IMG/VR virus record: IMGVR_UViG_3300021432_000008
Span: 12,941 to 76,940 of that record
Reading direction: 5' to 3' (one strand)
DNA length: 64,000 nucleotides
Origin: a virus
Shown: positions 1 through 10,243 of the stretch, in pieces
How positions within the stretch are numbered: position 1 is the stretch's first letter
How the letters are laid out: every line of letters begins with the position of its first letter
Made by a program: the position numbers and the translations under genes
The notes under the pieces: model-generated
What the model was told of the DNA's origin: nothing
Seen by the model: only the letters and a program-made list of their open reading frames with translations
The model's database searches: none

Positions 1-34
1 CGTGTTGTGAGGACAAGTTCGATAGCTACGTCTG

Positions 35-432
35 CCAGCAACTATCTCAAGGTTCCCTGAATCGTTGCCGGATGAGCGACTGATAGCCCCCTGGTCTTCT
101 TCGACGACCCGCAACGCTCTCAGGGTTCCCTCGATCGTTGCCGGGCCTATTCCGGAGATCCCAAGATGACCCGCAACTTTCTCAGGGCTCCCTTGATCGT
201 TGCTGGCCGCCGGCGATCGTCTCGAAGGTGTGCCGAATGCTGTACCCGCAACTTTCTCAGGGCTCCCTTGATCGTTGCTGGACGATCCTTTTACCACCTG
301 GAGATTATCGACCATGCAAGTCCCGCAACTTTCTCAGGGCTCCCTTGATCGTTGCTGGTTGTCTGGAACCCAGAACACCGCTGCCTGCATTGCCGCCCGC
401 AACTTTCTCAGGGCTCCCTTGATCGTTGCTGG
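35..432 (-). CRISPR. CRISPR array, 6 repeats of 37 bp and 5 spacers; may continue left of the window
   Basis: The + strand repeat CCCGCAACTTTCTCAGGGCTCCCTTGATCGTTGCTGG is identical at 170-206, 245-281, 322-358 and 396-432, and degenerate at 108-144 and 35-71. Unique spacers are 36, 25, 38, 40 and 37 nt. Degeneracy at the left end implies minus-strand transcription with the leader on the right. Confidence 0.97.
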
Positions 433-649
433 AGTCGCGGCCATAAAGGCATTGTTCCAGCCCATTTAAGCGACGTTTCGCGAGAGGCGCCCATCGGCAA
501 GCGATTGTGGCCTTGGTCGCGCTCAGCTTGGCGGTAGCTGGATGTTGGCAGCATTGGAGTTACGTCTCCGCGAGCGGTTCGCCGCAACCTATTTGGAACA
601 AACGGTGTCCATCAAGTGGGTTACGGCAAGATCCGCTCTGTCCATCGAT
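433..649 (-). promoter_or_regulatory. CRISPR leader / candidate structured ncRNA (tracr- or scout-like)
   Basis: Non-coding 217 bp between the conserved end of the array and the upstream ORF. Contains a long hairpin closed by GCCGTAACC (627-619) and GGTTGCGGC (589-581). Confidence 0.55.
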
Positions 650-1009
650 TCAAGCGCCACGCCGCTCGCGGAGTCGCTCTAGTTCAGCTGTCAGTTCCGC
701 CTCGCGCTGGCGGAGAGCGTCGTCGCTGCTCTCGCCGTCGTCGGCGATATTACATACCTCCTTCTGGGCGCCAACGCGCTGGCCGATCTCAATGGAACGC
801 AAGCCCGTGTTCACGCCGCGCAGCGACGTGTTCAGCTCTTTGCTCCCGTGGGCGCCGTGGAGCGCATCGAGCGAATGTCCGATAGCGAAGTTGGTAATGT
901 CCTGCACCGTGCGGATACCGCCGGATGCGACTTCGAGCGCCTTGCTCTTGCGCGGCCCGCCAGCAGTCGCCGGGTCGCCTTGACGTGTAATCGTGCCAGT
1001 CTCAGCCAT
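650..1009 (-). CDS. 119-aa hypothetical protein in the Cas12f-like operon, C-terminal coiled coil
   Basis: ATG at 1009 with an AAAGGGG RBS, 13 nt downstream of the effector stop. Sequence MAETGT...LRQREAELTAELERLRERRGA. Confidence 0.75.
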   Translation of the reverse strand: MAETGTITRQGDPATAGGPRKSKALEVASGGIRTVQDITNFAIGHSLDALHGAHGSKELNTSLRGVNTGLRSIEIGQRVGAQKEVCNIADDGESSDDALRQREAELTAELERLRERRGA

Positions 1010-1022
1010 TCGTCGTCCCCTT

Positions 1023-2177
1023 TCATGCAGCAGTCTCCTCTTCTCCGTCCGAAGCGCACCGGCAAACGATGCCGGTCGCCTTGAGCTTGTCCTTGAGTAG
1101 AGCCTTGAGCTTGAACCACGGGAACCGCTCAATGTGACCTTGTTCGAGGTCGCTGTACAGTACCGTGCCGACGCGGTTGCGTTGGGCAAAGCCAACAAGG
1201 TGCGCCGCTGTCTCGTGGAGCCACGAGGCCATGCGGTTGTGATGCTTTCGGCAGCAGCGGCCCCGCGAGCGGTTAATGGCGCCCAGCGCATCAGGATTGA
1301 GACGCCGCTCTGCCTTGCTGTCCTGCGCCAACCGGTCGAGTCTATCCTCATGGGCGGCAAGCCAGGCGAACGCTCGCTTCATGTGGTCGTTGTTGAGAAC
1401 CCATGCCTGCCGCCCATCCAACTCCGCTACCCAGAAGGCATTCGGGTCGGTGATCAGAGTTAATACGCGATCGCCCAACTTCTCACGGCAGGGCAACTCT
1501 GCCACCATCTTGACCAGCACGCGGGAATCCTCGCGAGCTTCCAGCCGCGGTCGGTGGCAACTCGGGGAGCAATGCTGCTCGCGAATAACCAGCTGGAACA
1601 TGGGCAGACTACCGTTGACCACCTGCCGGAATAGCCCCATCTGCCGGCCGAACTCGGCACCGCCACGAAGCTGGATGCCGACTCCGCCGTCTGGAAAGGA
1701 AAACTCCTGCGATGGCAAAACGACTTCGATACACGGTCTTCCATTGCGGTCCAGTCGTGCCTGTCGCCAAGCCTGCGCGTGGATTGGCCACGGGTAGGGA
1801 TAGCGGTAGGTACATGGCGCCTGCTTGCGATGCCAGATGACGTTCAGCCGTTCAGAAATGTACTTGCGCTCCACGTCGCGACAGATGGTGGAGGCACTTC
1901 TGCAAGCCCCCGTCCACCAGTTGCCCGGTTGCGTGAAGCCGAACGTCTCACTTGCGAGCCCGTACAATCCCTTGAGCCGCTTGCCGTTGATCTTCGGCAT
2001 CTTCGCTAGCTTGACCATGCCGGGCAGCCGAACCACGTCGTTGCGAAGGAGTTGCTGGACGCACCAGTTCGCAAGCATGGTCGCCTGCTTCCAGCACTCC
2101 CTGATCGTCTCCCACGCCTCGCGGGGTTCGACCACATTGACGGGCAACTCAAACGCTCTGACTACCGTGTCGCTCAT
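1023..2177 (-). CDS. Nuclease-dead Cas12f/TnpB-family RNA-guided DNA-binding protein, 384 aa
   Basis: ATG at 2177 with a GAGGAAGG RBS. Collinear with Cas12f1: TYRYPYP vs SYKRDIP; RuvC-I position VLTLITDP instead of MGIDLG; bridge helix NRMASWLHETAAHLVGFA; RuvC-II VGTVLYSDL instead of GTIQMEDL; FPWFKLKALLKDKLKATGI vs WTYYDLQQKIIYKAEEAGI. It stops before the zinc finger and RuvC-III, and is adjacent to the array. Confidence 0.85.
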   Translation of the reverse strand: MSDTVVRAFELPVNVVEPREAWETIRECWKQATMLANWCVQQLLRNDVVRLPGMVKLAKMPKINGKRLKGLYGLASETFGFTQPGNWWTGACRSASTICRDVERKYISERLNVIWHRKQAPCTYRYPYPWPIHAQAWRQARLDRNGRPCIEVVLPSQEFSFPDGGVGIQLRGGAEFGRQMGLFRQVVNGSLPMFQLVIREQHCSPSCHRPRLEAREDSRVLVKMVAELPCREKLGDRVLTLITDPNAFWVAELDGRQAWVLNNDHMKRAFAWLAAHEDRLDRLAQDSKAERRLNPDALGAINRSRGRCCRKHHNRMASWLHETAAHLVGFAQRNRVGTVLYSDLEQGHIERFPWFKLKALLKDKLKATGIVCRCASDGEEETAA

Positions 2178-2211
2178 CGCTTTTACCTTCCTCTCGCAGC
2201 GACCAGTCAAA

Positions 2212-2239
2212 ATCGTACACCCGGTTTTCGGCGTGTCAA
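2212..2239 (-). promoter_or_regulatory. sigma70-type promoter of the cas12f-like operon
   Basis: TTGACA (2239-2234), 16-nt spacer, TACGAT (2217-2212), about 35 nt upstream of the ATG at 2177. Confidence 0.6.
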
Positions 2240-2280
2240 TACCCTCCCAGCGGTGTCCGAATTGGCACGGGCATAGCCGC

Positions 2281-2323
2281 GCACGCTGGCGCACGGTTAC
2301 GCACGCTGGCGCACGGTTACGCA
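2281..2323. repeat. 20-bp tandem repeat, candidate operator
   Basis: GCACGCTGGCGCACGGTTAC occurs twice. The core CGCACGCTGGCGCAC recurs at 3308-3322. Confidence 0.8.
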
Positions 2324-2346
2324 GGGAGAAAAAAAGTGCGGGCCGG

Positions 2347-2625
2347 CTACTTTTTCTTTTCCGTCGCCTCTTCCTTCGTCCGCTCGATGCCTCGGAACAT
2401 GCTGTAGCGGACCAGATCAAGCCAGTGCCAAACGTGTGCGTCTCCCATGAAGGAGTGCGGCAGAAGGTCGGGATAGCGCTCCCGCTCCGCCCGGAACTCG
2501 CTGTCGGTGAGCCCGAGCCACTTCGCTGCTTCCTTCTTGTCTGACCAAATCTGGTCGGGAGCATCGATGTACCTCAGCACACGTCCGACCTCCTTCGCCG
2601 GAGTCGCGGGAGCGAGCCGACTCAT
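2347..2625 (-). CDS. small HTH (AlpA/Xis/Cro-like) DNA-binding protein
   Basis: HTH-like SDKKEAAKWLGLTDSEFR; divergent from the RHH gene. Confidence 0.6.
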   Translation of the reverse strand: MSRLAPATPAKEVGRVLRYIDAPDQIWSDKKEAAKWLGLTDSEFRAERERYPDLLPHSFMGDAHVWHWLDLVRYSMFRGIERTKEEATEKKK

Positions 2626-2756
2626 GGGCTTGCTACACCGAACATCGTAACGACGGTTAATGCTACAGTCAACACGGAAATTTCATTTTATGTAACGATG
2701 GACGCGGTATAATGATATAGCGTCGGCTACCGTTACATTAGCCTTGCGAGCGTACC
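2626..2756. promoter_or_regulatory. divergent promoter/operator region (genetic switch)
   Basis: AT-rich; TATAAT at 2708-2713; repeated GTAACG/CGTTAC half-sites near 2646, 2692 and 2732. Confidence 0.55.
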
Positions 2757-3008
2757 ATGAGCATTGCTACACTGGTCAATATGGCCAAGAAGCAGAAGAC
2801 TGATCCGCCCGAAAAGAAGCCTAGCGCTGTCATCCGTGTAGAGGGAGACATCGCGCACATGCTAAACACTATCGCATCGTGGCGGAAAAAGGACGTCCCC
2901 GACATCGCGTCCCCAATTCTCCGCGCGAAGGTTGAGCAGCTATTTGCGGAAGTGCATCGCGAAATGGGCAAGACGATCGGCACTCTTCACGACGACGAGA
3001 ACACCTAA
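2757..3008 (+). CDS. ribbon-helix-helix repressor-like protein
   Basis: SAVIRVEGDIAHMLNTIASWRKKDVPDIASPILR fits a strand-helix-helix pattern. Confidence 0.6.
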   Translation: MSIATLVNMAKKQKTDPPEKKPSAVIRVEGDIAHMLNTIASWRKKDVPDIASPILRAKVEQLFAEVHREMGKTIGTLHDDENT

Positions 3009-3268
3009 AACCTCAGCCCCGCCGCCCTCAGCGCCTCTTCCGCCTCGATCTGCTCCCGCCGCAGCGCGTGCGCCGACGGCACGGGCACGGCAGGCACGAC
3101 CGGCGTCAGCAGTGCCTCCACGTCAACGCGGCGCACGAGCAGACGAGTCCCGGCACGGCGAAGCGCGGGCAACTTGCCCTCGGAGACGAGTCGATAGATT
3201 GTGGCGACGTGGACGGACAGCAGGCGCGCCGCCGTCTTCGGGCTGATCAAATCGTTCGGGAGAGACAT
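3005..3268 (-). CDS. excisionase-family HTH_17 protein
   Basis: LISPKTAARLLSVHVATIYRLVSEGKLPALR; GGAGG RBS before the ATG at 3268. Confidence 0.85.
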   Translation of the reverse strand: MSLPNDLISPKTAARLLSVHVATIYRLVSEGKLPALRRAGTRLLVRRVDVEALLTPVVPAVPVPSAHALRREQIEAEEALRAAGLRF

Positions 3269-3517
3269 GACATGGGACCTCCATGTGGACCGCGAGCGCA
3301 TCCCTCCCGCACGCTGGCGCACACGAGCCGGCCGGGAGAGACGAGAGTATCCTGAAAGATGGGCACATGCAGATGGGCATGCAGAGAGTGAAACGCAGCA
3401 ACCCTACGTCGCCTTCTGGGCTTGGTCAAGGACATACGGGTGTCGCTCTTTCGCTTTCGGCAACCTGCTCCGCATTCGCTCGCGGAGCGTAAAATTGTGT
3501 TCGTGGAGGAATGAAGC

Positions 3518-4369: not shown

Positions 4370-4752
4370 CCCGCGCCGACCGCCTCGCCTGGGCCAAGAC
4401 CGCCACCGTCTGGCAATGGACCGTGGCATGCGCTACCCTGGTGATGGGGTGGAATGAACACCGCGGCGCGTGGATAGACGAGCACGGCAATGCCACAGGG
4501 TTGACCGATGATGGCTACGGCGGGGGAGGAGAGCCGATCCGCGCCTGGAACCCCATCGAACGCATCGAGGACTCCTGGCTTGTCCACCAGCGTATCGGGC
4601 AGGGTGAGTTGAGAGAACGGTACAGCCGGGAACTGGCCAGCGTAATCCTTGGACGCATGGGAGCCAGGGCGACGGACTACAGATACTTCGCCCTGGACAT
4701 GACGCCGCGCGATGTGTGTTTGGCGGCGCTGCTGACCGTGGAGGAAGCATGA
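4366..4752 (+). CDS. phage ABA-sandwich-like protein
   Basis: VMGW...[13 protein letters not shown]...[10 protein letters not shown]; ATGA coupling to the upstream gene. Confidence 0.6.
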
Positions 4753-5441
4753 CCGAGACGGAATGGAACGCGAGCGCGGACCCGGTCGCTATGCTCGATT
4801 GGCGGATGGGTCGCGATCAGGAGGGGCACGCCGGACAGTCTCCAGCAAGCCCCATCAGCGACCGGCAACTCCGCCTTTTTGCGGTTGCGTGTTGCAGGTC
4901 TGTCTTTAGCCTCCTCACGGACAAGCGATCCCGCAAGGCTGTGGAGGTAGCGGAGAGGTTCGCGGATGGGGAGGCGACGAAGGAGGAGACGTTCAAACTC
5001 GCATCGTCCTGCATGACGCTTGCACGTTGCTTGATGCCATCATGGGAAGGGGATGCGGAAGCCAGGGCGATAATCGAAACTGCCGAAATGCACAATCAGG
5101 ACGCCTTGCCTGGATACGCCAATCTCCTTCGGGAGATCATCGGTGACCCCTTCCGGCAAGTGGCCCTCTACGTATCCGGCAACGGCTCGGGTGAAGTATC
5201 AACCAACAGCAGCGGCGACGGTCCCTGGTGGCCACTCACCCCGCAGGCCCTCGCGCTTTGCGAAGTGGCGTACCGCGAGCGTGGAAGCGACGGCTCCCTG
5301 GACCCGCTGACGCTGAAATTGGTGGCGGATGCGCTGGAAGAGGCCGGTGCCGACGACTCGGTAATTCTCGGCCACCTAAGAAATGCAGGCCCGCATGTCA
5401 GAGGCTGCTGGGCAGTCGATTTGCTACTTGGAAAGGAGTAA
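4749..5441 (+). CDS. Gemmataceae-expanded family protein (often labelled SMI1/KNR4-like)
   Basis: MTETEW...RQLRLFAVACCR...VADALEEAG...HVRGCWAVDLLLGKE. Confidence 0.8.
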   Translation: MTETEWNASADPVAMLDWRMGRDQEGHAGQSPASPISDRQLRLFAVACCRSVFSLLTDKRSRKAVEVAERFADGEATKEETFKLASSCMTLARCLMPSWEGDAEARAIIETAEMHNQDALPGYANLLREIIGDPFRQVALYVSGNGSGEVSTNSSGDGPWWPLTPQALALCEVAYRERGSDGSLDPLTLKLVADALEEAGADDSVILGHLRNAGPHVRGCWAVDLLLGKE

Positions 5442-5445
5442 CAAC

Positions 5446-5721
5446 ATGGCACGCGGCGAAGCGTTTTTCAAGCTGCCTGACGAAGAAGTGGTCAATCTCT
5501 GGCGCATTGACCCGCCTGGGCGACGTGCCATCAGCGAAGGCGACGAGGTTACCATTCGGGAACTGCGGCAATACGGACGCAATCATCTGGTGAAAGGTGG
5601 CCGTCGGCTGCGCGTGCGTGTCGTGTCTATAGACAGGGCGGACGCCCTACACGCATGCCATGTGGAGATTCTGGCAGACCTATCGCCGCCACCGGCTCGG
5701 CAAGGAGAGTTGTTTGATTGA
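5446..5721 (+). CDS. hypothetical protein
   Basis: AGGAG RBS; directly follows the previous stop. Confidence 0.6.
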   Translation: MARGEAFFKLPDEEVVNLWRIDPPGRRAISEGDEVTIRELRQYGRNHLVKGGRRLRVRVVSIDRADALHACHVEILADLSPPPARQGELFD

Positions 5722-5786
5722 CCTCACCCCAACCTCCGCGCCGCCTCCCGTGCCCGCTCCACGTCCTCCCCTCAAGGAGTCTGTAA

Positions 5787-6002
5787 ATGAGCCAGCCTAA
5801 ACTGAGCATGACCGGCAAGGGTTCGCGCGGCGACTATCAGGTGTACGAGATAACAATGGAGATGACGCAGTTGACCGACACGATTGCTTTCGTGACCATC
5901 TGGGCAGGCGGGCGGCGAACCTACGAATTCGACAGCGATATGACCTACACGGAGGAGCTGCTCACTGAGATCATCAGCCTGGCGAAGACAGCCTCTCCGT
6001 GA
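5787..6002 (+). CDS. hypothetical protein
   Basis: AAGGAG RBS; 71 aa. Confidence 0.6.
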   Translation: MSQPKLSMTGKGSRGDYQVYEITMEMTQLTDTIAFVTIWAGGRRTYEFDSDMTYTEELLTEIISLAKTASP

Positions 6003-6025
6003 CAGCCTACCCCGTTATTCTACGC

Positions 6026-7105
6026 TCATCCCAACCTACGGGCCACTTGCTTCGCCATCTCCAAGTCGGTTTGCTGGCCGTAGCCGTCCGTGACCTGAAT
6101 GCTCTTCTGGCCGAGATAGCTTCGAGCAAAATCCAGTCCCAGCGCCCGCGTCACCCTCTGTTTCGCCGCATGCCGGCACTGGTACGGATGCAGCTGCACG
6201 CCGGCCTCCTCCGCGGCCGCGCGCACGGCCTTCGTCAGCCCCCAGCGCGAGTACGGGCCCCGCTGGCCGACGAACACGAAGTCGTCGCCGTTCTTGCCCT
6301 CCAGCCACGGCGCCAGAACCTTCTGCGCGCTCGTGCCCATGACGATCTCGCGGACGTGCCCAAGATGCGCGGTCTTGTGCTTAGCGGGCCGAAATACCCA
6401 CTCCTCGCCAGCACGATCAACCTCGCACGCGCGCATCACGCGAACCTCGCCCGTGCGGCACCCGGTAAACCACATGAAGAGCAACATCGCCCGCGGCATC
6501 GGCTTGAGCCGCCGGCACACGGCGATGATTGCCGGCCACTCTGCGGGCCGCACGGGCTCCGTGCTGCGGTGCTGGCGGTCCTGCTTGCCGATGGGTCGCA
6601 ACGAGTGCAGGTGAGCCCATGAGCCTCTGGGAGCCAGCTTCAGACGCTCCAGCCGCCGCCAGATCGTCTTGATGCGGATGGTCTGCCGGTTGATGTGGTT
6701 GCGGCACCATCCCTTCTCGCCCATCGCCTTGCGGACGTCGTCCAGATCATCGATACCGAAGCCGTCCGTCGTCAGGTCGCGGTGGAGCGACAGCAGCACC
6801 TCGATCACGCGCTTGTAATGGCGGAACTCGTCGCGCTCGCCGTAGTGTCCCGTGGCCCACTCAAGCCACTTGGCGATGGCCCCGGAGATGGTCGGCCACG
6901 CTCCGGCGAGGATGCGAGGCGGCTCGCCCGGTTGCGGTTTGTCGCTCTCAGCCGCAGCGAGCCGGACCAGCAGAGCGGCGTATTCCTGCGCGTTGTCACC
7001 ACCGATGGGCCCGATGTAATAATCGTGCCCCCGCCAGCGGACCCGTTCTCGACCGCTGATATGGTGCGCCCGAGGTTGCGGCGGCCACTTCACCTTGCGT
7101 CCCAT
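6026..7105 (-). CDS. int: tyrosine recombinase / phage integrase
   Basis: TGCRTGE (Arg), KHKT (Lys), HPYQCRH, LGQ and TDGY (Tyr); N-terminal arm-binding region. Confidence 0.92.
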   Translation of the reverse strand: MGRKVKWPPQPRAHHISGRERVRWRGHDYYIGPIGGDNAQEYAALLVRLAAAESDKPQPGEPPRILAGAWPTISGAIAKWLEWATGHYGERDEFRHYKRVIEVLLSLHRDLTTDGFGIDDLDDVRKAMGEKGWCRNHINRQTIRIKTIWRRLERLKLAPRGSWAHLHSLRPIGKQDRQHRSTEPVRPAEWPAIIAVCRRLKPMPRAMLLFMWFTGCRTGEVRVMRACEVDRAGEEWVFRPAKHKTAHLGHVREIVMGTSAQKVLAPWLEGKNGDDFVFVGQRGPYSRWGLTKAVRAAAEEAGVQLHPYQCRHAAKQRVTRALGLDFARSYLGQKSIQVTDGYGQQTDLEMAKQVARRLG

Positions 7106-7404
7106 CGGCTCCTCCCTCTTGCGCCCGGAATGTGGGTATTCCGGGGTAATGATTCAAGGGTAGGGGCAGGACGGCTATAAAAAAGCTCCTCTTTCGCAGG
7201 CTGCGCAATTGAGTTTCGCAATTCTCTCACCGGGCGATAGGTTCGCCCGGGGCGTGTCGTTTGCCGTCCTGGCCCGACGCTTGACAGAAACCTTGATGGG
7301 GTGCGAGGATAACGAGAGGGGCGGAACAGGTCAATACGTCTCAGTGGCGTTCGCAGCTACCTACGATACCCTACAAACAAATCGGGTAGGGAGTGCCCGT
7401 CGCC

Positions 7405-7752
7405 TCACCCCACTTCCGACCGCGGTGCCCATGCCTCCTCGCACGCCAGGCCCAGCAGCAGCTTGCCCGCCTTGCGGACGCCATGCTTGCCGGCGATCTT
7501 CTCGCGCACGCGCCGGAAGAAGCCCTCGCGCGCGGGGTACTCGACAGCACGCGAGGAAGTGACCAGCAGCAAGTCAATGAGGAAGTCGTCGGGGAACTCG
7601 CGCACGTCGATCTCATCAAGGATCGCGTTGATGACCTCGAAGCGCCGGCGCTCACGCAGAGAATGGACGGTCCTGAGCATCTCCCGGCAGGCGCGTGGCA
7701 AGTCGAAGAGGACCTGTCGGCGCCAGTCGGAGATGAGGTCGGAGGAGAGCAT
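7405..7752 (-). CDS. hypothetical protein
   Basis: 115-aa ORF following the upstream gene. Confidence 0.55.
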   Translation of the reverse strand: MLSSDLISDWRRQVLFDLPRACREMLRTVHSLRERRRFEVINAILDEIDVREFPDDFLIDLLLVTSSRAVEYPAREGFFRRVREKIAGKHGVRKAGKLLLGLACEEAWAPRSEVG

Positions 7753-7758
7753 CGGAGG

Positions 7759-7944
7759 CTAATCCTTGTTCCATTGGCGAACGTGGTACTTGACCGATTC
7801 GACCAGATGACTCAGGTCCTCCAAGTGAACTTCGTCGATGTTCTTGTGGTCTTGGACACGTTCGTTGATCTGACCAAGGAGAGCCTGAACTTTGCTGATC
7901 TGAGAATCGATCTCCTTCTTCCTCGACAACTGGTCCTCTGTCAT
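7759..7944 (-). CDS. small coiled-coil hypothetical protein
   Basis: GAGGAGG RBS; MTEDQLSRKKE... Confidence 0.6.
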   Translation of the reverse strand: MTEDQLSRKKEIDSQISKVQALLGQINERVQDHKNIDEVHLEDLSHLVESVKYHVRQWNKD

Positions 7945-8077
7945 TGTGCCCCTCCTCAATCCCAACGGTCGAGCCGAACCTGTTGCCAGTCCGATGCCGA
8001 AGAAGCGGACAAGGTTCGCGCGAATTACCCGCACGCTGCTGCGATGCGCCCCGCCAGCGCCGTCGTGGAGAGGCGCG

Positions 8078-10243
8078 CTACCAGATCCGGTGCGTCCCAA
8101 TGCGTTCAACCGTGGCCGGCCGATCCGAAGCGCCGACAGCCTTCGCGCCGTTCAGTTGCTCTCTGAGCCAGAACGGACTGTGGAGGATGCGGCATCCCCA
8201 GAAGGGCAGTCCGCCCGTGTCGTGGTTCTTGTGGTTCCACGTATGGCCGGAGAGCGGGAAGATCGTGAAGTTACGCAGGACCGCCGCCACGCACAACGCC
8301 GACTGGTCATCGACGGACAGGGTTCGGCAGATGTCCCAGGCCTGGCTGACCACTTTCGCGAGTCCAGGGTGATCCTTGCGGAAGAAGATCACGCCGGCGT
8401 TGAAGAGCGGCACGAAGCTCGCTCCCGGTAGGTACTCGCGCACAGCCTTCGTTATGTGCTCGTATCCATCGACGATCTCGTTGTCGTCGCCATACTCGCG
8501 TTGCCCGACGTGGTGCTTGTCGTAGGCCATCGCCAGCCCGAACTGCTCGGCTCGCACGAACGGCCAGTCGAAACTGATCGGATCGGGAGCATCGTGGGGA
8601 GGCAACCGCGGCGAGAGCGGATGCTCTGGCCCAATCACGAAGGCGTCGGTATCGAGGTAGAGCGTCAGGTCATAGGGCGACTTCTCGAAGATGACGAGCT
8701 TCTGCGCCATCGCGTTGCTGCCCACGCCAAACGCCGTCGCGTCGTAGGGTATCACGGAGTCGAACAGTCCACGATCGACAGCGAGGTTTGCCGTCTGCTC
8801 CAGCAGCAGAGAGATGGGCAGACCGAGCCGCCGGGCGCAGCGAGCGGAGTAGTGCAGCTCCTCCACGTTGTCGCTGGCGAACGGCTCGCTCCGATCCTCC
8901 GGCTGGCGTGGGTCATAGACGAGGAAGACGACACCCCGCGGCGGCGTGATGACAGTCATGCGGTTCTCCAGGTCGGCCTTGTCGAAGGTACGCAACTCGC
9001 TCCAGCGGTCATGGACGCCGACAGCCACTGTCCATCTCTCGCCGTCAAGGACGGCACCGCCGGGGAAGAGAACACCGGCGTACTGATCCGCCGGCTTCGT
9101 GTTCCAGTCGGCCGACGCGATCGGCTCGGACAGAAAACGCCTGATCGCAAATGGAGGCTTCGCATCGAAGGTATAGACGCCCATGTGGTAGGTAATCCGC
9201 CCACCCGGCTCCGTCCGCGAGTGGAAGAAGTGCCAGAACTCATCCCCCACGAGGACAGGGGAAGCACCGCCCCGCATTTCCCCTTCGGTCCAGTGAACCC
9301 GCGTCGGTGTCTGGTAGGCCATCTCCGCTTGCTCGCCATCGATACGGAGGATACGGTGTGGAGCGATGGAGTACACCGCGTAAAGGCTGCCGTCGTGCTC
9401 GAACACCCCCCAATTCTTCTCCCAGAGGTTCCTCTTGGGATAGTTCGGGTAGAAGATTTGCTCGACGCGCAGGTCATCGCTCAGGCGGGCATACAAGACG
9501 CTTGTGTGCAGGAACGTGGTCTTGCCCACAACGCCCGTGTACATGACGTGGAGCTTGCCGCGAAACATGAAGAGTCTGGGGTCTTCCCGTCCGAAATTCG
9601 CCTGCTGCTGGTGGAACAGGTCGAGCTTCACCGGCTCGCCAAACGGTCGAAAACGGGCATCCATCCTCTGGAGGAAAATCTCGCTGCCCGCCCAGCCGTT
9701 GCGGAAGGCGAACAGGTAGCCGTCCTGCCAGCGGATGAGCGATGGGTTGAAGCGCAGACCGGATGGGCCGGGAAGGGTGTGCTGGTCGATGCGGATGGTG
9801 TTGCCGTCCTCGACTGTCGGGGCGATTGCCGGCACTGGGCCATGTGTGATGATGGGCGGATTGTGGATGCGGGGCGGCTCTGTCCTTCTGTTCTTCGCCC
9901 TCTCGCGGTTCCGCTTCACCCGCTCTGCGTCCTTGCCCGCCTCCGGATGGTCGTTACATCGCTGGCAATAGCTGACTGCCCTGTCCTTAGATAGCTTCTC
10001 CTGCGTGCAGGAACCGTGGAGATTGCACGCCATCAGATCAACCATGACGACGCTGCCGCGGCAGGCATCGCACGGTGTTTCCCCGATCTTCGGCCCCTGA
10101 TGGGGACAGATGCCGCGGAGCAAGTGCGCCCCACGCGATGGCTGGCCGTTCTCCCGCGCCTGCGCCAGCACGCGCGGATCGTCGTCCGCGACCTCGATCT
10201 CGTTGTACAGCCCCGGTCCCAGGTATTCGAGGATAGTTGGCAT
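8078..10243 (-). CDS. GH130-like beta-propeller plus GT8-like glycosyltransferase fusion with Cys-rich N-terminus
   Basis: FNPSL, EDPRL, EKNW and RGG propeller motifs; TLYLDTD (DxD), FNAGVIFF and DQSAL GT-A motifs. Confidence 0.8.
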   Translation of the reverse strand: MPTILEYLGPGLYNEIEVADDDPRVLAQARENGQPSRGAHLLRGICPHQGPKIGETPCDACRGSVVMVDLMACNLHGSCTQEKLSKDRAVSYCQRCNDHPEAGKDAERVKRNRERAKNRRTEPPRIHNPPIITHGPVPAIAPTVEDGNTIRIDQHTLPGPSGLRFNPSLIRWQDGYLFAFRNGWAGSEIFLQRMDARFRPFGEPVKLDLFHQQQANFGREDPRLFMFRGKLHVMYTGVVGKTTFLHTSVLYARLSDDLRVEQIFYPNYPKRNLWEKNWGVFEHDGSLYAVYSIAPHRILRIDGEQAEMAYQTPTRVHWTEGEMRGGASPVLVGDEFWHFFHSRTEPGGRITYHMGVYTFDAKPPFAIRRFLSEPIASADWNTKPADQYAGVLFPGGAVLDGERWTVAVGVHDRWSELRTFDKADLENRMTVITPPRGVVFLVYDPRQPEDRSEPFASDNVEELHYSARCARRLGLPISLLLEQTANLAVDRGLFDSVIPYDATAFGVGSNAMAQKLVIFEKSPYDLTLYLDTDAFVIGPEHPLSPRLPPHDAPDPISFDWPFVRAEQFGLAMAYDKHHVGQREYGDDNEIVDGYEHITKAVREYLPGASFVPLFNAGVIFFRKDHPGLAKVVSQAWDICRTLSVDDQSALCVAAVLRNFTIFPLSGHTWNHKNHDTGGLPFWGCRILHSPFWLREQLNGAKAVGASDRPATVERIGTHRIW

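Follow-up and report, generated by a model that had tools for sequence, protein, structure and literature searches.

A phage-borne type V-like CRISPR module with a truncated Cas12f-fold effector, a predicted tail peptide and a dual-coded accessory gene

The left end of a 64,000-nucleotide (nt) stretch of viral DNA, referred to here as the window (bases 12941-76940 of the 76,940-bp IMG/VR virus record IMGVR_UViG_3300021432_000008), carries a compact CRISPR module whose effector is a Cas12f-fold protein of 384 amino acids (aa). The module is phage-borne, type V-like and adaptation-less. The promoter, 384-aa effector, 119-aa open reading frame (ORF) and array that an earlier note, made from the sequence alone, had described as co-oriented were all found on the minus strand, and the full order there is promoter-like site, 384-aa ORF, 64-aa ORF, 119-aa ORF, structured RNA and array (Table 1). 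The reading that we favour, with a probability of roughly 0.6, is that the effector is an RNA-guided DNA binder that acts without cleavage against competing mobile elements.

According to this reading the effector would bind CRISPR RNAs (crRNAs) made of the repeat hairpin followed by a spacer of about 36 nt. It would probably be a Cas12f-style dimer, with the 64-aa tail peptide packed against the truncated RuvC domain, and would form R-loops on matching DNA and stay bound to it uncut, blocking transcription or replication of its targets, most probably phages or integrative elements that compete within the same host. The structured RNA would probably serve as a scaffold or processing signal and the 119-aa protein as a partner of the effector. 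Such an activity has precedents. Nuclease-deactivated Cas12f (dCas12f) with a C-terminal RuvC truncation binds DNA by means of a guide RNA (PMC13472631), Cas12m silences without cutting (PMC10442227, PMC11656645), and the arrays of phage Cas12r target integrative elements (10.64898/2026.04.20.719267).

Table 1. Positions in the window of the elements of the module and of the adjoining direct repeat
Feature	Position	Strand	Remarks
CRISPR array	1..432	-	37-nt repeats at 396-432, 322-358, 245-281, 170-206, 108-144 and 35-71
Conserved structured RNA, ~110 nt	433..542	-	covariance model; abuts first repeat
119-aa accessory gene	650..1009	-	conserved; third frame, overlaps tail ORF by ~175 nt
64-aa tail ORF	832..1026	-	-1 frame; matched by hidden Markov model of fused tails
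384-aa Cas12f-fold effector	1023..2177	-	translation, family profile, AlphaFold2, Foldseek
Sigma70-like promoter TTGACA-16-TACGAT	2212..2239	-	10/12 consensus matches; consensus match only; ~35 nt upstream of effector start
Perfect tandem 20-nt direct repeat	2280..2319		just upstream of effector promoter; possible operator, from sequence

The effector and its truncated RuvC domain

Cas12f was reached only through the family profile and the fold, as searches with the single effector sequence gave nothing usable: there was no match above threshold in Pfam, NCBIfam or (by phmmer) PDB, and Pfam OrfB_IS605 scored E 0.16, with 12.6 bits against a cut-off of 30.5. A word-indexed search found 60 relatives (30-68% identity, 275-481 aa), none with a Pfam domain, and an exhaustive search gave 717 representative clusters with E ≤ 1e-3; for 540 of these E was ≤ 1e-10. 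The family has no Pfam model. Its profile, built on 93 aligned members, matched OsCas12f (E 4.8e-11) and dCas12f (E 3.1e-7) in PDB, as well as several Cas12f1 and TnpB chains.

The AlphaFold2 model of the effector has a predicted local distance difference test score (pLDDT) of 92.4 and a predicted template modelling score of 0.86. With Foldseek it matched Cas12f at E 4e-17 and dCas12f at 1e-14, the top matches being only Cas12f, dCas12f, TnpB and Cas12k. VIA-align was run on the model of a homolog with a fused C-terminal tail (P0003, 68% identical to the window effector) and gave Z 23.4 to AsCas12f (root-mean-square deviation 4.6 Å over 344 residues, model residues 4-429), Z 23.1 to dCas12f 9n9m (residues 3-365) and Z 17.8 to ISDra2 TnpB; Cas12m was a distant match (Z 11.5-12.7). 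Judged by profile, Foldseek and VIA-align, all of which gave strong matches, the effector is a bilobed protein of Cas12f/TnpB fold, as had been proposed from the sequence alone, with wedge (WED) and recognition (REC) lobes and a RuvC domain that stops after strand β5. The analogy with dCas12f drawn at that stage also proved apt, because residues 1-374 of the P0003 model cover the full length of 9n9m, so that the solved 365-aa dCas12f ends at the equivalent of residue 374.

The canonical RuvC D-E-D triad is absent: the 384-aa ORF has Ser at the Glu position and no RuvC-III Asp. In the profile alignment the RuvC-II Glu of OsCas12f falls on Ser342 of LYSDL (residues 340-344; nt 1146-1160), the very substitution that the earlier note had pointed out, and across the 93 members this column is D in 54%, followed by L, R, N or S, and is never E. 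The same note had read RuvC-I as LTLITD. The motif is indeed present at residues 239-244 (nt 1446-1463), but the profile aligns the RuvC-I Asp of OsCas12f with Ile242 and not with Asp244, in a register uncertain by two residues; D never occurs in the aligned column, and Asp244 is present in 67% of members.

The 384-aa ORF ends 14 residues past β5 and has no zinc ribbon. About two-thirds of the aligned members end ≤ 31 residues past β5, which is too short for a zinc ribbon and RuvC-III, and the median tail past the G-I motif among family members is 23 residues. No match to the zinc-ribbon domains Cas12f1-like_TNB and OrfB_Zn_ribbon was found in the effector or in its ten longest relatives. Judged from the alignments, the family as a whole has lost both the canonical Glu and the zinc ribbon. 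The truncation is common to close homologs; hence the effector is not a recent pseudogene, which the earlier note had named as a possible refutation. Distant homologs also keep their arrays. From these features we infer that it is nuclease-dead.

Two motifs are invariant or nearly so across the 93 members, N-x-D-H (effector residues 262-265, after strand β3) and D-x-K-x-E-x-R (residues 286-292, in a long helix). Neither is shared with OsCas12f in the profile alignment.

Array, structured RNA and related loci

The array comprises seven repeats and six spacers of 25-40 nt. Six of the repeats are in the window, and the seventh, a degenerate one, is found 4-40 nt past its left edge. Identity of the repeats falls from the effector side (100, 100, 100, 100, 86, 81% and lower), a decay that places the leader on that side. 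The repeat folds end to end (-12.6 kcal/mol, z -2.4). Spacer 4 (window 145-169) is only 25 nt long, compared with 36-40 nt for the others, and adjoins the first degenerate repeat, which suggests that the older end of the array has undergone a deletion.

Arrays are also found directly downstream of homologs of 28-34% identity in six loci (L001, L009, L010, L011, L012 and L014). In four of these loci the array starts about 170 nt past the gene, with seven repeats in L001, five in L009, three in L011 (where the contig end cuts the array) and two in L010. The repeats differ in sequence among loci but all fold as end-to-end hairpins with 3' ends similar to GTTGCGG, consistent with a type V crRNA that has its repeat handle at the 5' end and its spacer at the 3' end. 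In the window and in six other loci the effector is co-oriented with the array and the 3' end of the repeat stands next to the spacer.

Evidence for spacer turnover comes from two IMG/VR contigs, L012 (1455-1713) and L014 (2769-3033), which are 99.46% identical over 5.8 kb. They share spacers 2 and 3, the older ones, whereas their leader-proximal first spacers are unrelated. It follows that spacers turn over at the leader end even though no adaptation genes are linked, which suggests that spacers may be acquired in trans or by recombination; cas1 and cas2 are not obligatory in many type V variants. The two unrelated first spacers open with the same six bases.

The 717 clusters, the conserved arrays and the spacer turnover indicate a real, maintained system. 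That the module could instead be a decaying, non-functional remnant of Cas12f is extremely improbable. Its distal repeats are degenerate, one spacer has only 25 nt and no target was found, as might be expected of a remnant, but the truncated length and the conserved motifs recur in hundreds of clusters, no reading frame is broken, the four repeats nearest the leader do not differ from one another, and the RNA element, tail and accessory gene are all conserved.

No match to the spacers was found in the phage's own 77 kb, in GenBank phages or by cross-matching among all fetched loci, and none in IMG/VR for spacers 1-3 as exact 24-mers. In one frame spacer 3 reads Y-S-I-R-H-T-F-E-T-I-A-G, which differs from the phage's own integrase and which we take, as a lead only, to resemble box II of tyrosine recombinases. 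Such a lead would fit the finding that phage Cas12r arrays target integrative elements near integrases.

A 20-mer of the repeat occurs in no other IMG/VR contig, and no host system with the window repeat is known. Both facts bear on the possibility of an anti-CRISPR decoy, with the effector either soaking up the crRNAs of the host or competing with a type V system of the host. Although such a role as a sink for crRNAs has been discussed for a phage-encoded Cas9 inactivated in its RuvC domain (PMC11656645), and a module without adaptation genes would suit such a role, this system has an array of its own with six different spacers, a dedicated conserved RNA and spacer turnover in related phages. 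We therefore consider a decoy very improbable.

Between the accessory gene and the first repeat, what had been taken for a leader (433-542) is better described as a conserved, covarying structured RNA. The approximately 110 nt directly upstream of the first repeat are common to all loci compared. The proposed structure has four stems plus the repeat hairpin, with 19 pairs that change on both sides, and 77.8% of cells are paired compared with 64.5% in shuffles (0/500) and 37-42% when slid. A covariance model from which the window sequence had been left out matched the window over its full length (64.7 bits, E 2.4e-11), and the same model matched a locus in a Luteitalea metagenome-assembled genome (MAG; L002) at E 1e-10. 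A pattern based solely on the element retrieved L012 and L014, each with an effector homolog and an array; the two other pattern matches are without an effector and look like chance. No Rfam family matches the RNA.

A trans-activating crRNA (tracrRNA) with an anti-repeat was tried as an identity for this element and was not supported. No anti-repeat was found and, in six loci, the best duplex with the repeat was no better than with shuffled repeats, so that the structured RNA does not look like a classical tracrRNA. Possible roles are those of a scaffold, of a processing signal or of the 5' portion of an omega-RNA-like guide that serves the first spacer. A partial look-alike of its core box (CTCGCGGAG) is present at window 560-600 (minus strand), about 90 nt upstream of the main element; it is preceded by GTTGCGG, like the 3' end of the repeat, and is not reported by the covariance model.

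In L001 (an 85-kb IMG/VR contig; 4371-8962) the effector and its seven-repeat array sit between two ORFs, one with the OB and HHH domains of RecD2/YrrC helicases and the other with an AAA_30/UvrD_C helicase core, followed by a C5 DNA methylase; judging by these domains, it is as if the module had split a helicase gene. The Luteitalea MAG locus (L002:5866-7760 in WHTZ01000023.1) is a chromosomal effector homolog with the RNA element at 7144-7255, one repeat-like hairpin, a single putative guide and no further repeats. It has a MacB/FtsX permease gene on either side, and a PadR-like gene follows it closely downstream. From this layout it looks like a domesticated single-guide regulator. The guide has four near-matches at three mismatches in its own genome, compared with two for a reversed control.

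The tail peptide, the accessory gene and alternative functions

Long homologs of the effector (about 430-450 aa) have a C-terminal extension that combines an acidic patch, a Trp and a basic helix with a terminal G-S-H-P-x-V-S-x-P. A hidden Markov model (HMM) made from 26 fused tails matched the 64-aa frame of the window at E 3.2e-14. This frame encodes the basic helix together with the S-H-P-x-V motif. Its ATG overlaps the TGA of the effector (ATGA) and is preceded by GAGGAG 8 nt upstream. Thus the segment past β5 is predicted from sequence to be a peptide made from a separate, translationally coupled ORF. The tail is fused to the effector in L004, L005 and L007, and is in a separate frame with an overlap of about 20 nt in L006 (HMM E 2e-4).

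No tail was detected in the distant array-bearing family members. A tail peptide with an R-D motif considered for distant homologs was rejected, the apparent peptide being the translated conserved RNA element running into the first repeat. Standalone tail peptides were not found in the protein database, a weak negative as gene callers would skip an overlapped ORF.

In the P0003 model pLDDT is 86-92 for the tail helix (394-420) and for the S-H-P end, and the alignments to Cas12f and TnpB take in the tail. TnpB carries its TNB zinc finger (327-359) between β5 and the final helix, with the RuvC-III Asp at residue 361 (PMC10097598). We infer from the model that the tail helix takes the place of the zinc finger, with Ser424/His425 of P0003 at about the RuvC-III position, a mapping drawn from the end points of the aligned ranges and not from coordinates. 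It is apparently the tail of the protein itself, sometimes as a separate peptide, that complements the RuvC domain.

Several observations weigh against a DNA binder devoid of catalysis and aimed at mobile elements. The statement that the protein ends before the zinc finger and RuvC-III holds for the 384-aa ORF, but the C-terminal segment is encoded nevertheless, by the 64-aa ORF. The P0003 alignments to ISDra2 TnpB end at chain residues 363-365, two to four past RuvC-III Asp361, so that a rearranged active site could be accommodated. The Ser-His of the tail does not vary among 27 sequences that have a tail, albeit sequences picked by a pattern requiring the His. The close subfamily keeps Asp244 in 24 of 26 members and both Asp264 and Asp343 in all 26, and Asp is frequent at the RuvC-II position in the wider family; together with the tail peptide, the retained Asp244 and Asp343 would be compatible with a non-canonical active site or an RNA-processing site. 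In addition, no protospacer was found in the searches described above, no anti-repeat was detected in the structured RNA, and the planctomycete host is a tentative attribution from weak Atlas leads.

The first group of these points underlies the main rival explanation, in which RuvC is split and not dead, and the His of the tail forms with Asp244 and Asp343 a non-canonical site that cuts or nicks DNA or only processes pre-crRNA. We regard this as possible, though on balance unlikely. Selection on the tail is indicated by its being fused in some relatives and split in others at differing junctions (ATGA in the window, the longer overlap in L006), its model is confident and puts Ser424/His425 about where TnpB has its RuvC-III Asp, and the three Asp residues are near-invariant in the close subfamily. 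The RuvC-II Glu position of that subfamily, however, is not conserved (Ser, Leu, Arg or Phe), distant members have arrays and no detectable tail, and the apparent placing and invariance of the His come with the limits on mapping and sampling just given. Comparable cases exist elsewhere: TnpB clade RIIIr-4, in which the RuvC-III Asp has become His and the zinc finger is missing, is predicted to be active (PMC10691335), and in other type V systems guides are known to mature in a RuvC-dependent manner (10.64898/2026.04.20.719267).

The 119-aa ORF overlaps the tail frame, and about 175 nt (window 832-1009) are read twice, in one frame for the tail peptide and in the other for the N-terminal portion of the 119-aa product. 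Four database homologs were found (53-63% identity, E 1e-25 to 1e-30), and for three of them the largest contigs are equal in size to those of effector homologs. By tblastn the protein matched L004 at E 1.7e-18, extending well past the overlap, and in L004 the accessory gene and the fused tail share 133 nt (1359-1491) in different frames. Its GC content by codon position (0.70/0.51/0.73) resembles that of the phage's own genes. The possibility of a spurious high-GC frame was rejected, conservation at the protein level reaching beyond the overlap. On this sequence evidence the 119-aa gene is real and is dual-coded with the tail. Its product matches nothing in Pfam, NCBIfam, PDB or Atlas, and the gene is absent from distant loci, where the array closely follows the effector.

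A conserved accessory gene, packed tightly with the effector and sharing dual-coding DNA with the tail, could also mean that the module is a recruitment platform, in which tail and 119-aa protein bring in host machinery (such as RNA polymerase or a replication or recombination factor) and so activate or redirect a process, in the manner of sigmaE-dCas12f or of TniQ/TnsC with Cas12k. In the dCas12f-sigmaE system the C-terminal domain of the partner complements the truncated RuvC (10.1101/2025.06.10.658880), and the chromosomal locus L002, with its one guide and its PadR-like and MacB/FtsX neighbours, looks regulatory. Yet the phage record has no sigma-factor domain, the 119-aa protein matches no known family or fold, distant array-bearing loci lack it and have their array about 170 nt past the effector, and multi-spacer arrays with turnover fit conflict better than housekeeping regulation. 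Recruitment is accordingly a doubtful alternative to RNA-guided binding without cleavage.

A more speculative proposal, put forward very tentatively, unites several of these features. The family might be an undescribed type V subtype with a split RuvC, the last segment of which (His for the RuvC-III Asp, a helix for the zinc finger) is made as a coupled 64-aa peptide, dual-coded with a partner. Binding of the peptide would switch the effector between a DNA binder and a non-canonical nuclease or RNA processor, assisted by the RNA without an anti-repeat.

Relation to known systems and genomic setting

Among the closest described architectures is that of dCas12f-sigmaE from Flagellimonas taeanensis (PDB 9n9c/9n9m; PMC13472631; 10.1101/2025.06.10.658880), which has the same Cas12f fold with RuvC truncated right past β5. 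In both, a separate segment complements the truncated RuvC, the C-terminal domain of sigmaE in that system and, according to the model, the tail in this one. Identity to the window effector is only 11-13%. The dCas12f-sigmaE system has an operonic rpoE (an extracytoplasmic function sigma factor with an extra C-terminal domain), whereas the phage record has neither rpoE nor a sigma domain, and it uses single chimeric guides and has lost the array, of which the window keeps seven repeats and multiple spacers. It is found on Bacteroidota chromosomes and the window family in a high-GC phage and soil-metagenome setting. The tail peptide and the 119-aa accessory gene are extra in the window locus.

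A cluster of array-associated dCas12f proteins (PMC13472631, Extended Data Fig. 1a,b) is likewise predicted to be nuclease-dead, is C-terminally truncated and lies next to arrays. It has a covarying putative guide RNA upstream of the array, and repression has been proposed as its function. The cluster belongs to a 99-tip Cas12f subtree, and the example given is a Chitinophagaceae MAG targeting an efflux promoter. The low identity of the window effector to Bacteroidota dCas12f and the size of its family (717 clusters) suggest a separate lineage, the two being compared by description and not by sequence.

Cas12f nucleases of type V-F (AsCas12f 7wju/8j12, OsCas12f 9nzq, Un1Cas12f 7c7l) are the best matches in sequence and structure and share the miniature size and adjoining array. 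They have the D-E-D triad, a zinc-ribbon TNB and a tracrRNA with an anti-repeat; the window system has lost the Glu and has either a helix or nothing in place of the zinc ribbon, and a search for an anti-repeat gave none. Cas12m (V-M) is also a CRISPR-linked DNA-binding silencer without cleavage of double-stranded DNA, found on plasmids and prophages and usually without adaptation genes (PMC11656645, PMC10442227). It differs in its size of about 600 aa (384 aa in the window effector) and in keeping the zinc-finger region and a non-canonical RuvC triad.

Likenesses to TnpB-derived proteins are more partial. TldR proteins (10.1101/2023.11.30.569447) are also small and RuvC-defective, some are phage-encoded, and they repress by RNA-guided binding; they are TnpB-derived, with one omega-RNA-like guide against a host gene and no array, and are likened here by description and not by sequence. 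TnpB clade RIIIr-4 (PMC10691335), again likened by description, has no C4 zinc finger, has His for the RuvC-III Asp and is enriched in viruses, but it keeps RuvC-I and RuvC-II, is predicted to be active, includes archaeal members linked to MazE/RHH and has no described link to CRISPR. TnpB of IS200/IS605 goes with TnpA and transposon ends, whereas the record has no Y1_Tnp and an array takes the place of the omega-RNA. Cas12r of the Thermus Lalka phages (10.64898/2026.04.20.719267) is also part of a phage type V module without adaptation genes or tracrRNA. It is, however, an active RuvC nuclease of 564 aa, with spacers that match integrative elements near tyrosine integrases.

The family lacks the defining features of a Cas12f nuclease (triad, zinc ribbon and matches to curated models) and those of dCas12f-sigmaE, as it has no sigma factor and has kept its array. 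Truncated nuclease-dead Cas12f, an array-linked cluster of such proteins and silencing by Cas12m were known already. What distinguishes the present family from the systems compared here is the split-RuvC tail, the dual-coded accessory gene and the RNA without an anti-repeat.

Naturally nuclease-dead relatives of Cas12f have only recently been shown to be RNA-guided transcription factors, with single guides in Bacteroidota chromosomes. Here the same truncated architecture is present in a very large unnamed family that keeps multi-spacer arrays on phages and other mobile elements, which implies that CRISPR immunity or competition by binding without cutting may be far more widespread than Cas12m and type IV alone. 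If this is true, 384 aa and a 37-nt hairpin repeat would be among the smallest natural programmable DNA binders with native multiplexing, a size relevant to delivery for CRISPR interference and base editors. The tail peptide, the dual-coding accessory gene and the anti-repeat-less RNA each bear on how a truncated RuvC is stabilised or re-used.

The phage origin of the DNA, assumed from the start, is borne out. The record is an IMG/VR virus with 93% completeness (CheckV), has a portal-like gene and encodes a tyrosine integrase at window 6026-7105 (minus strand), which together fit a temperate tailed phage. The reported lack of cas1, cas2 and TnpA stands for Cas1, Cas2 and Y1 TnpA, and extends from the window to the whole 76,940-bp record in family searches; Cas4 was not searched for. 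The sigma-factor domains Sigma70_r2 and Sigma70_r4_2 had no match in the record either, and control genomes were positive in both sets of searches. The neighbours examined are helix-turn-helix (HTH), integrase and small ORFs.

An AGGAAGG-type ribosome-binding site precedes the effector ORF, and no terminator-like site was found in a scan of window 1-2800. Array and downstream genes may be co-transcribed, the stretch up to the next ORF being outside that scan. This ORF encodes a Cys-rich protein of 130 aa (L003:34-426, minus strand, which is 49-441 nt left of the window edge) and begins about 8 nt past the seventh, degenerate repeat, with which it shares the strand. Its Pfam match, of SBP zinc-finger type, is weak (E 7e-4, below the cut-off). 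At the other end of the module, a 75% copy of the tandem 20-nt repeat is found at 3308-3327, upstream of an HTH_17 excisionase-like gene (3005-3322, minus strand), and one regulator might control both this gene and the effector promoter by way of the 20-nt repeats.

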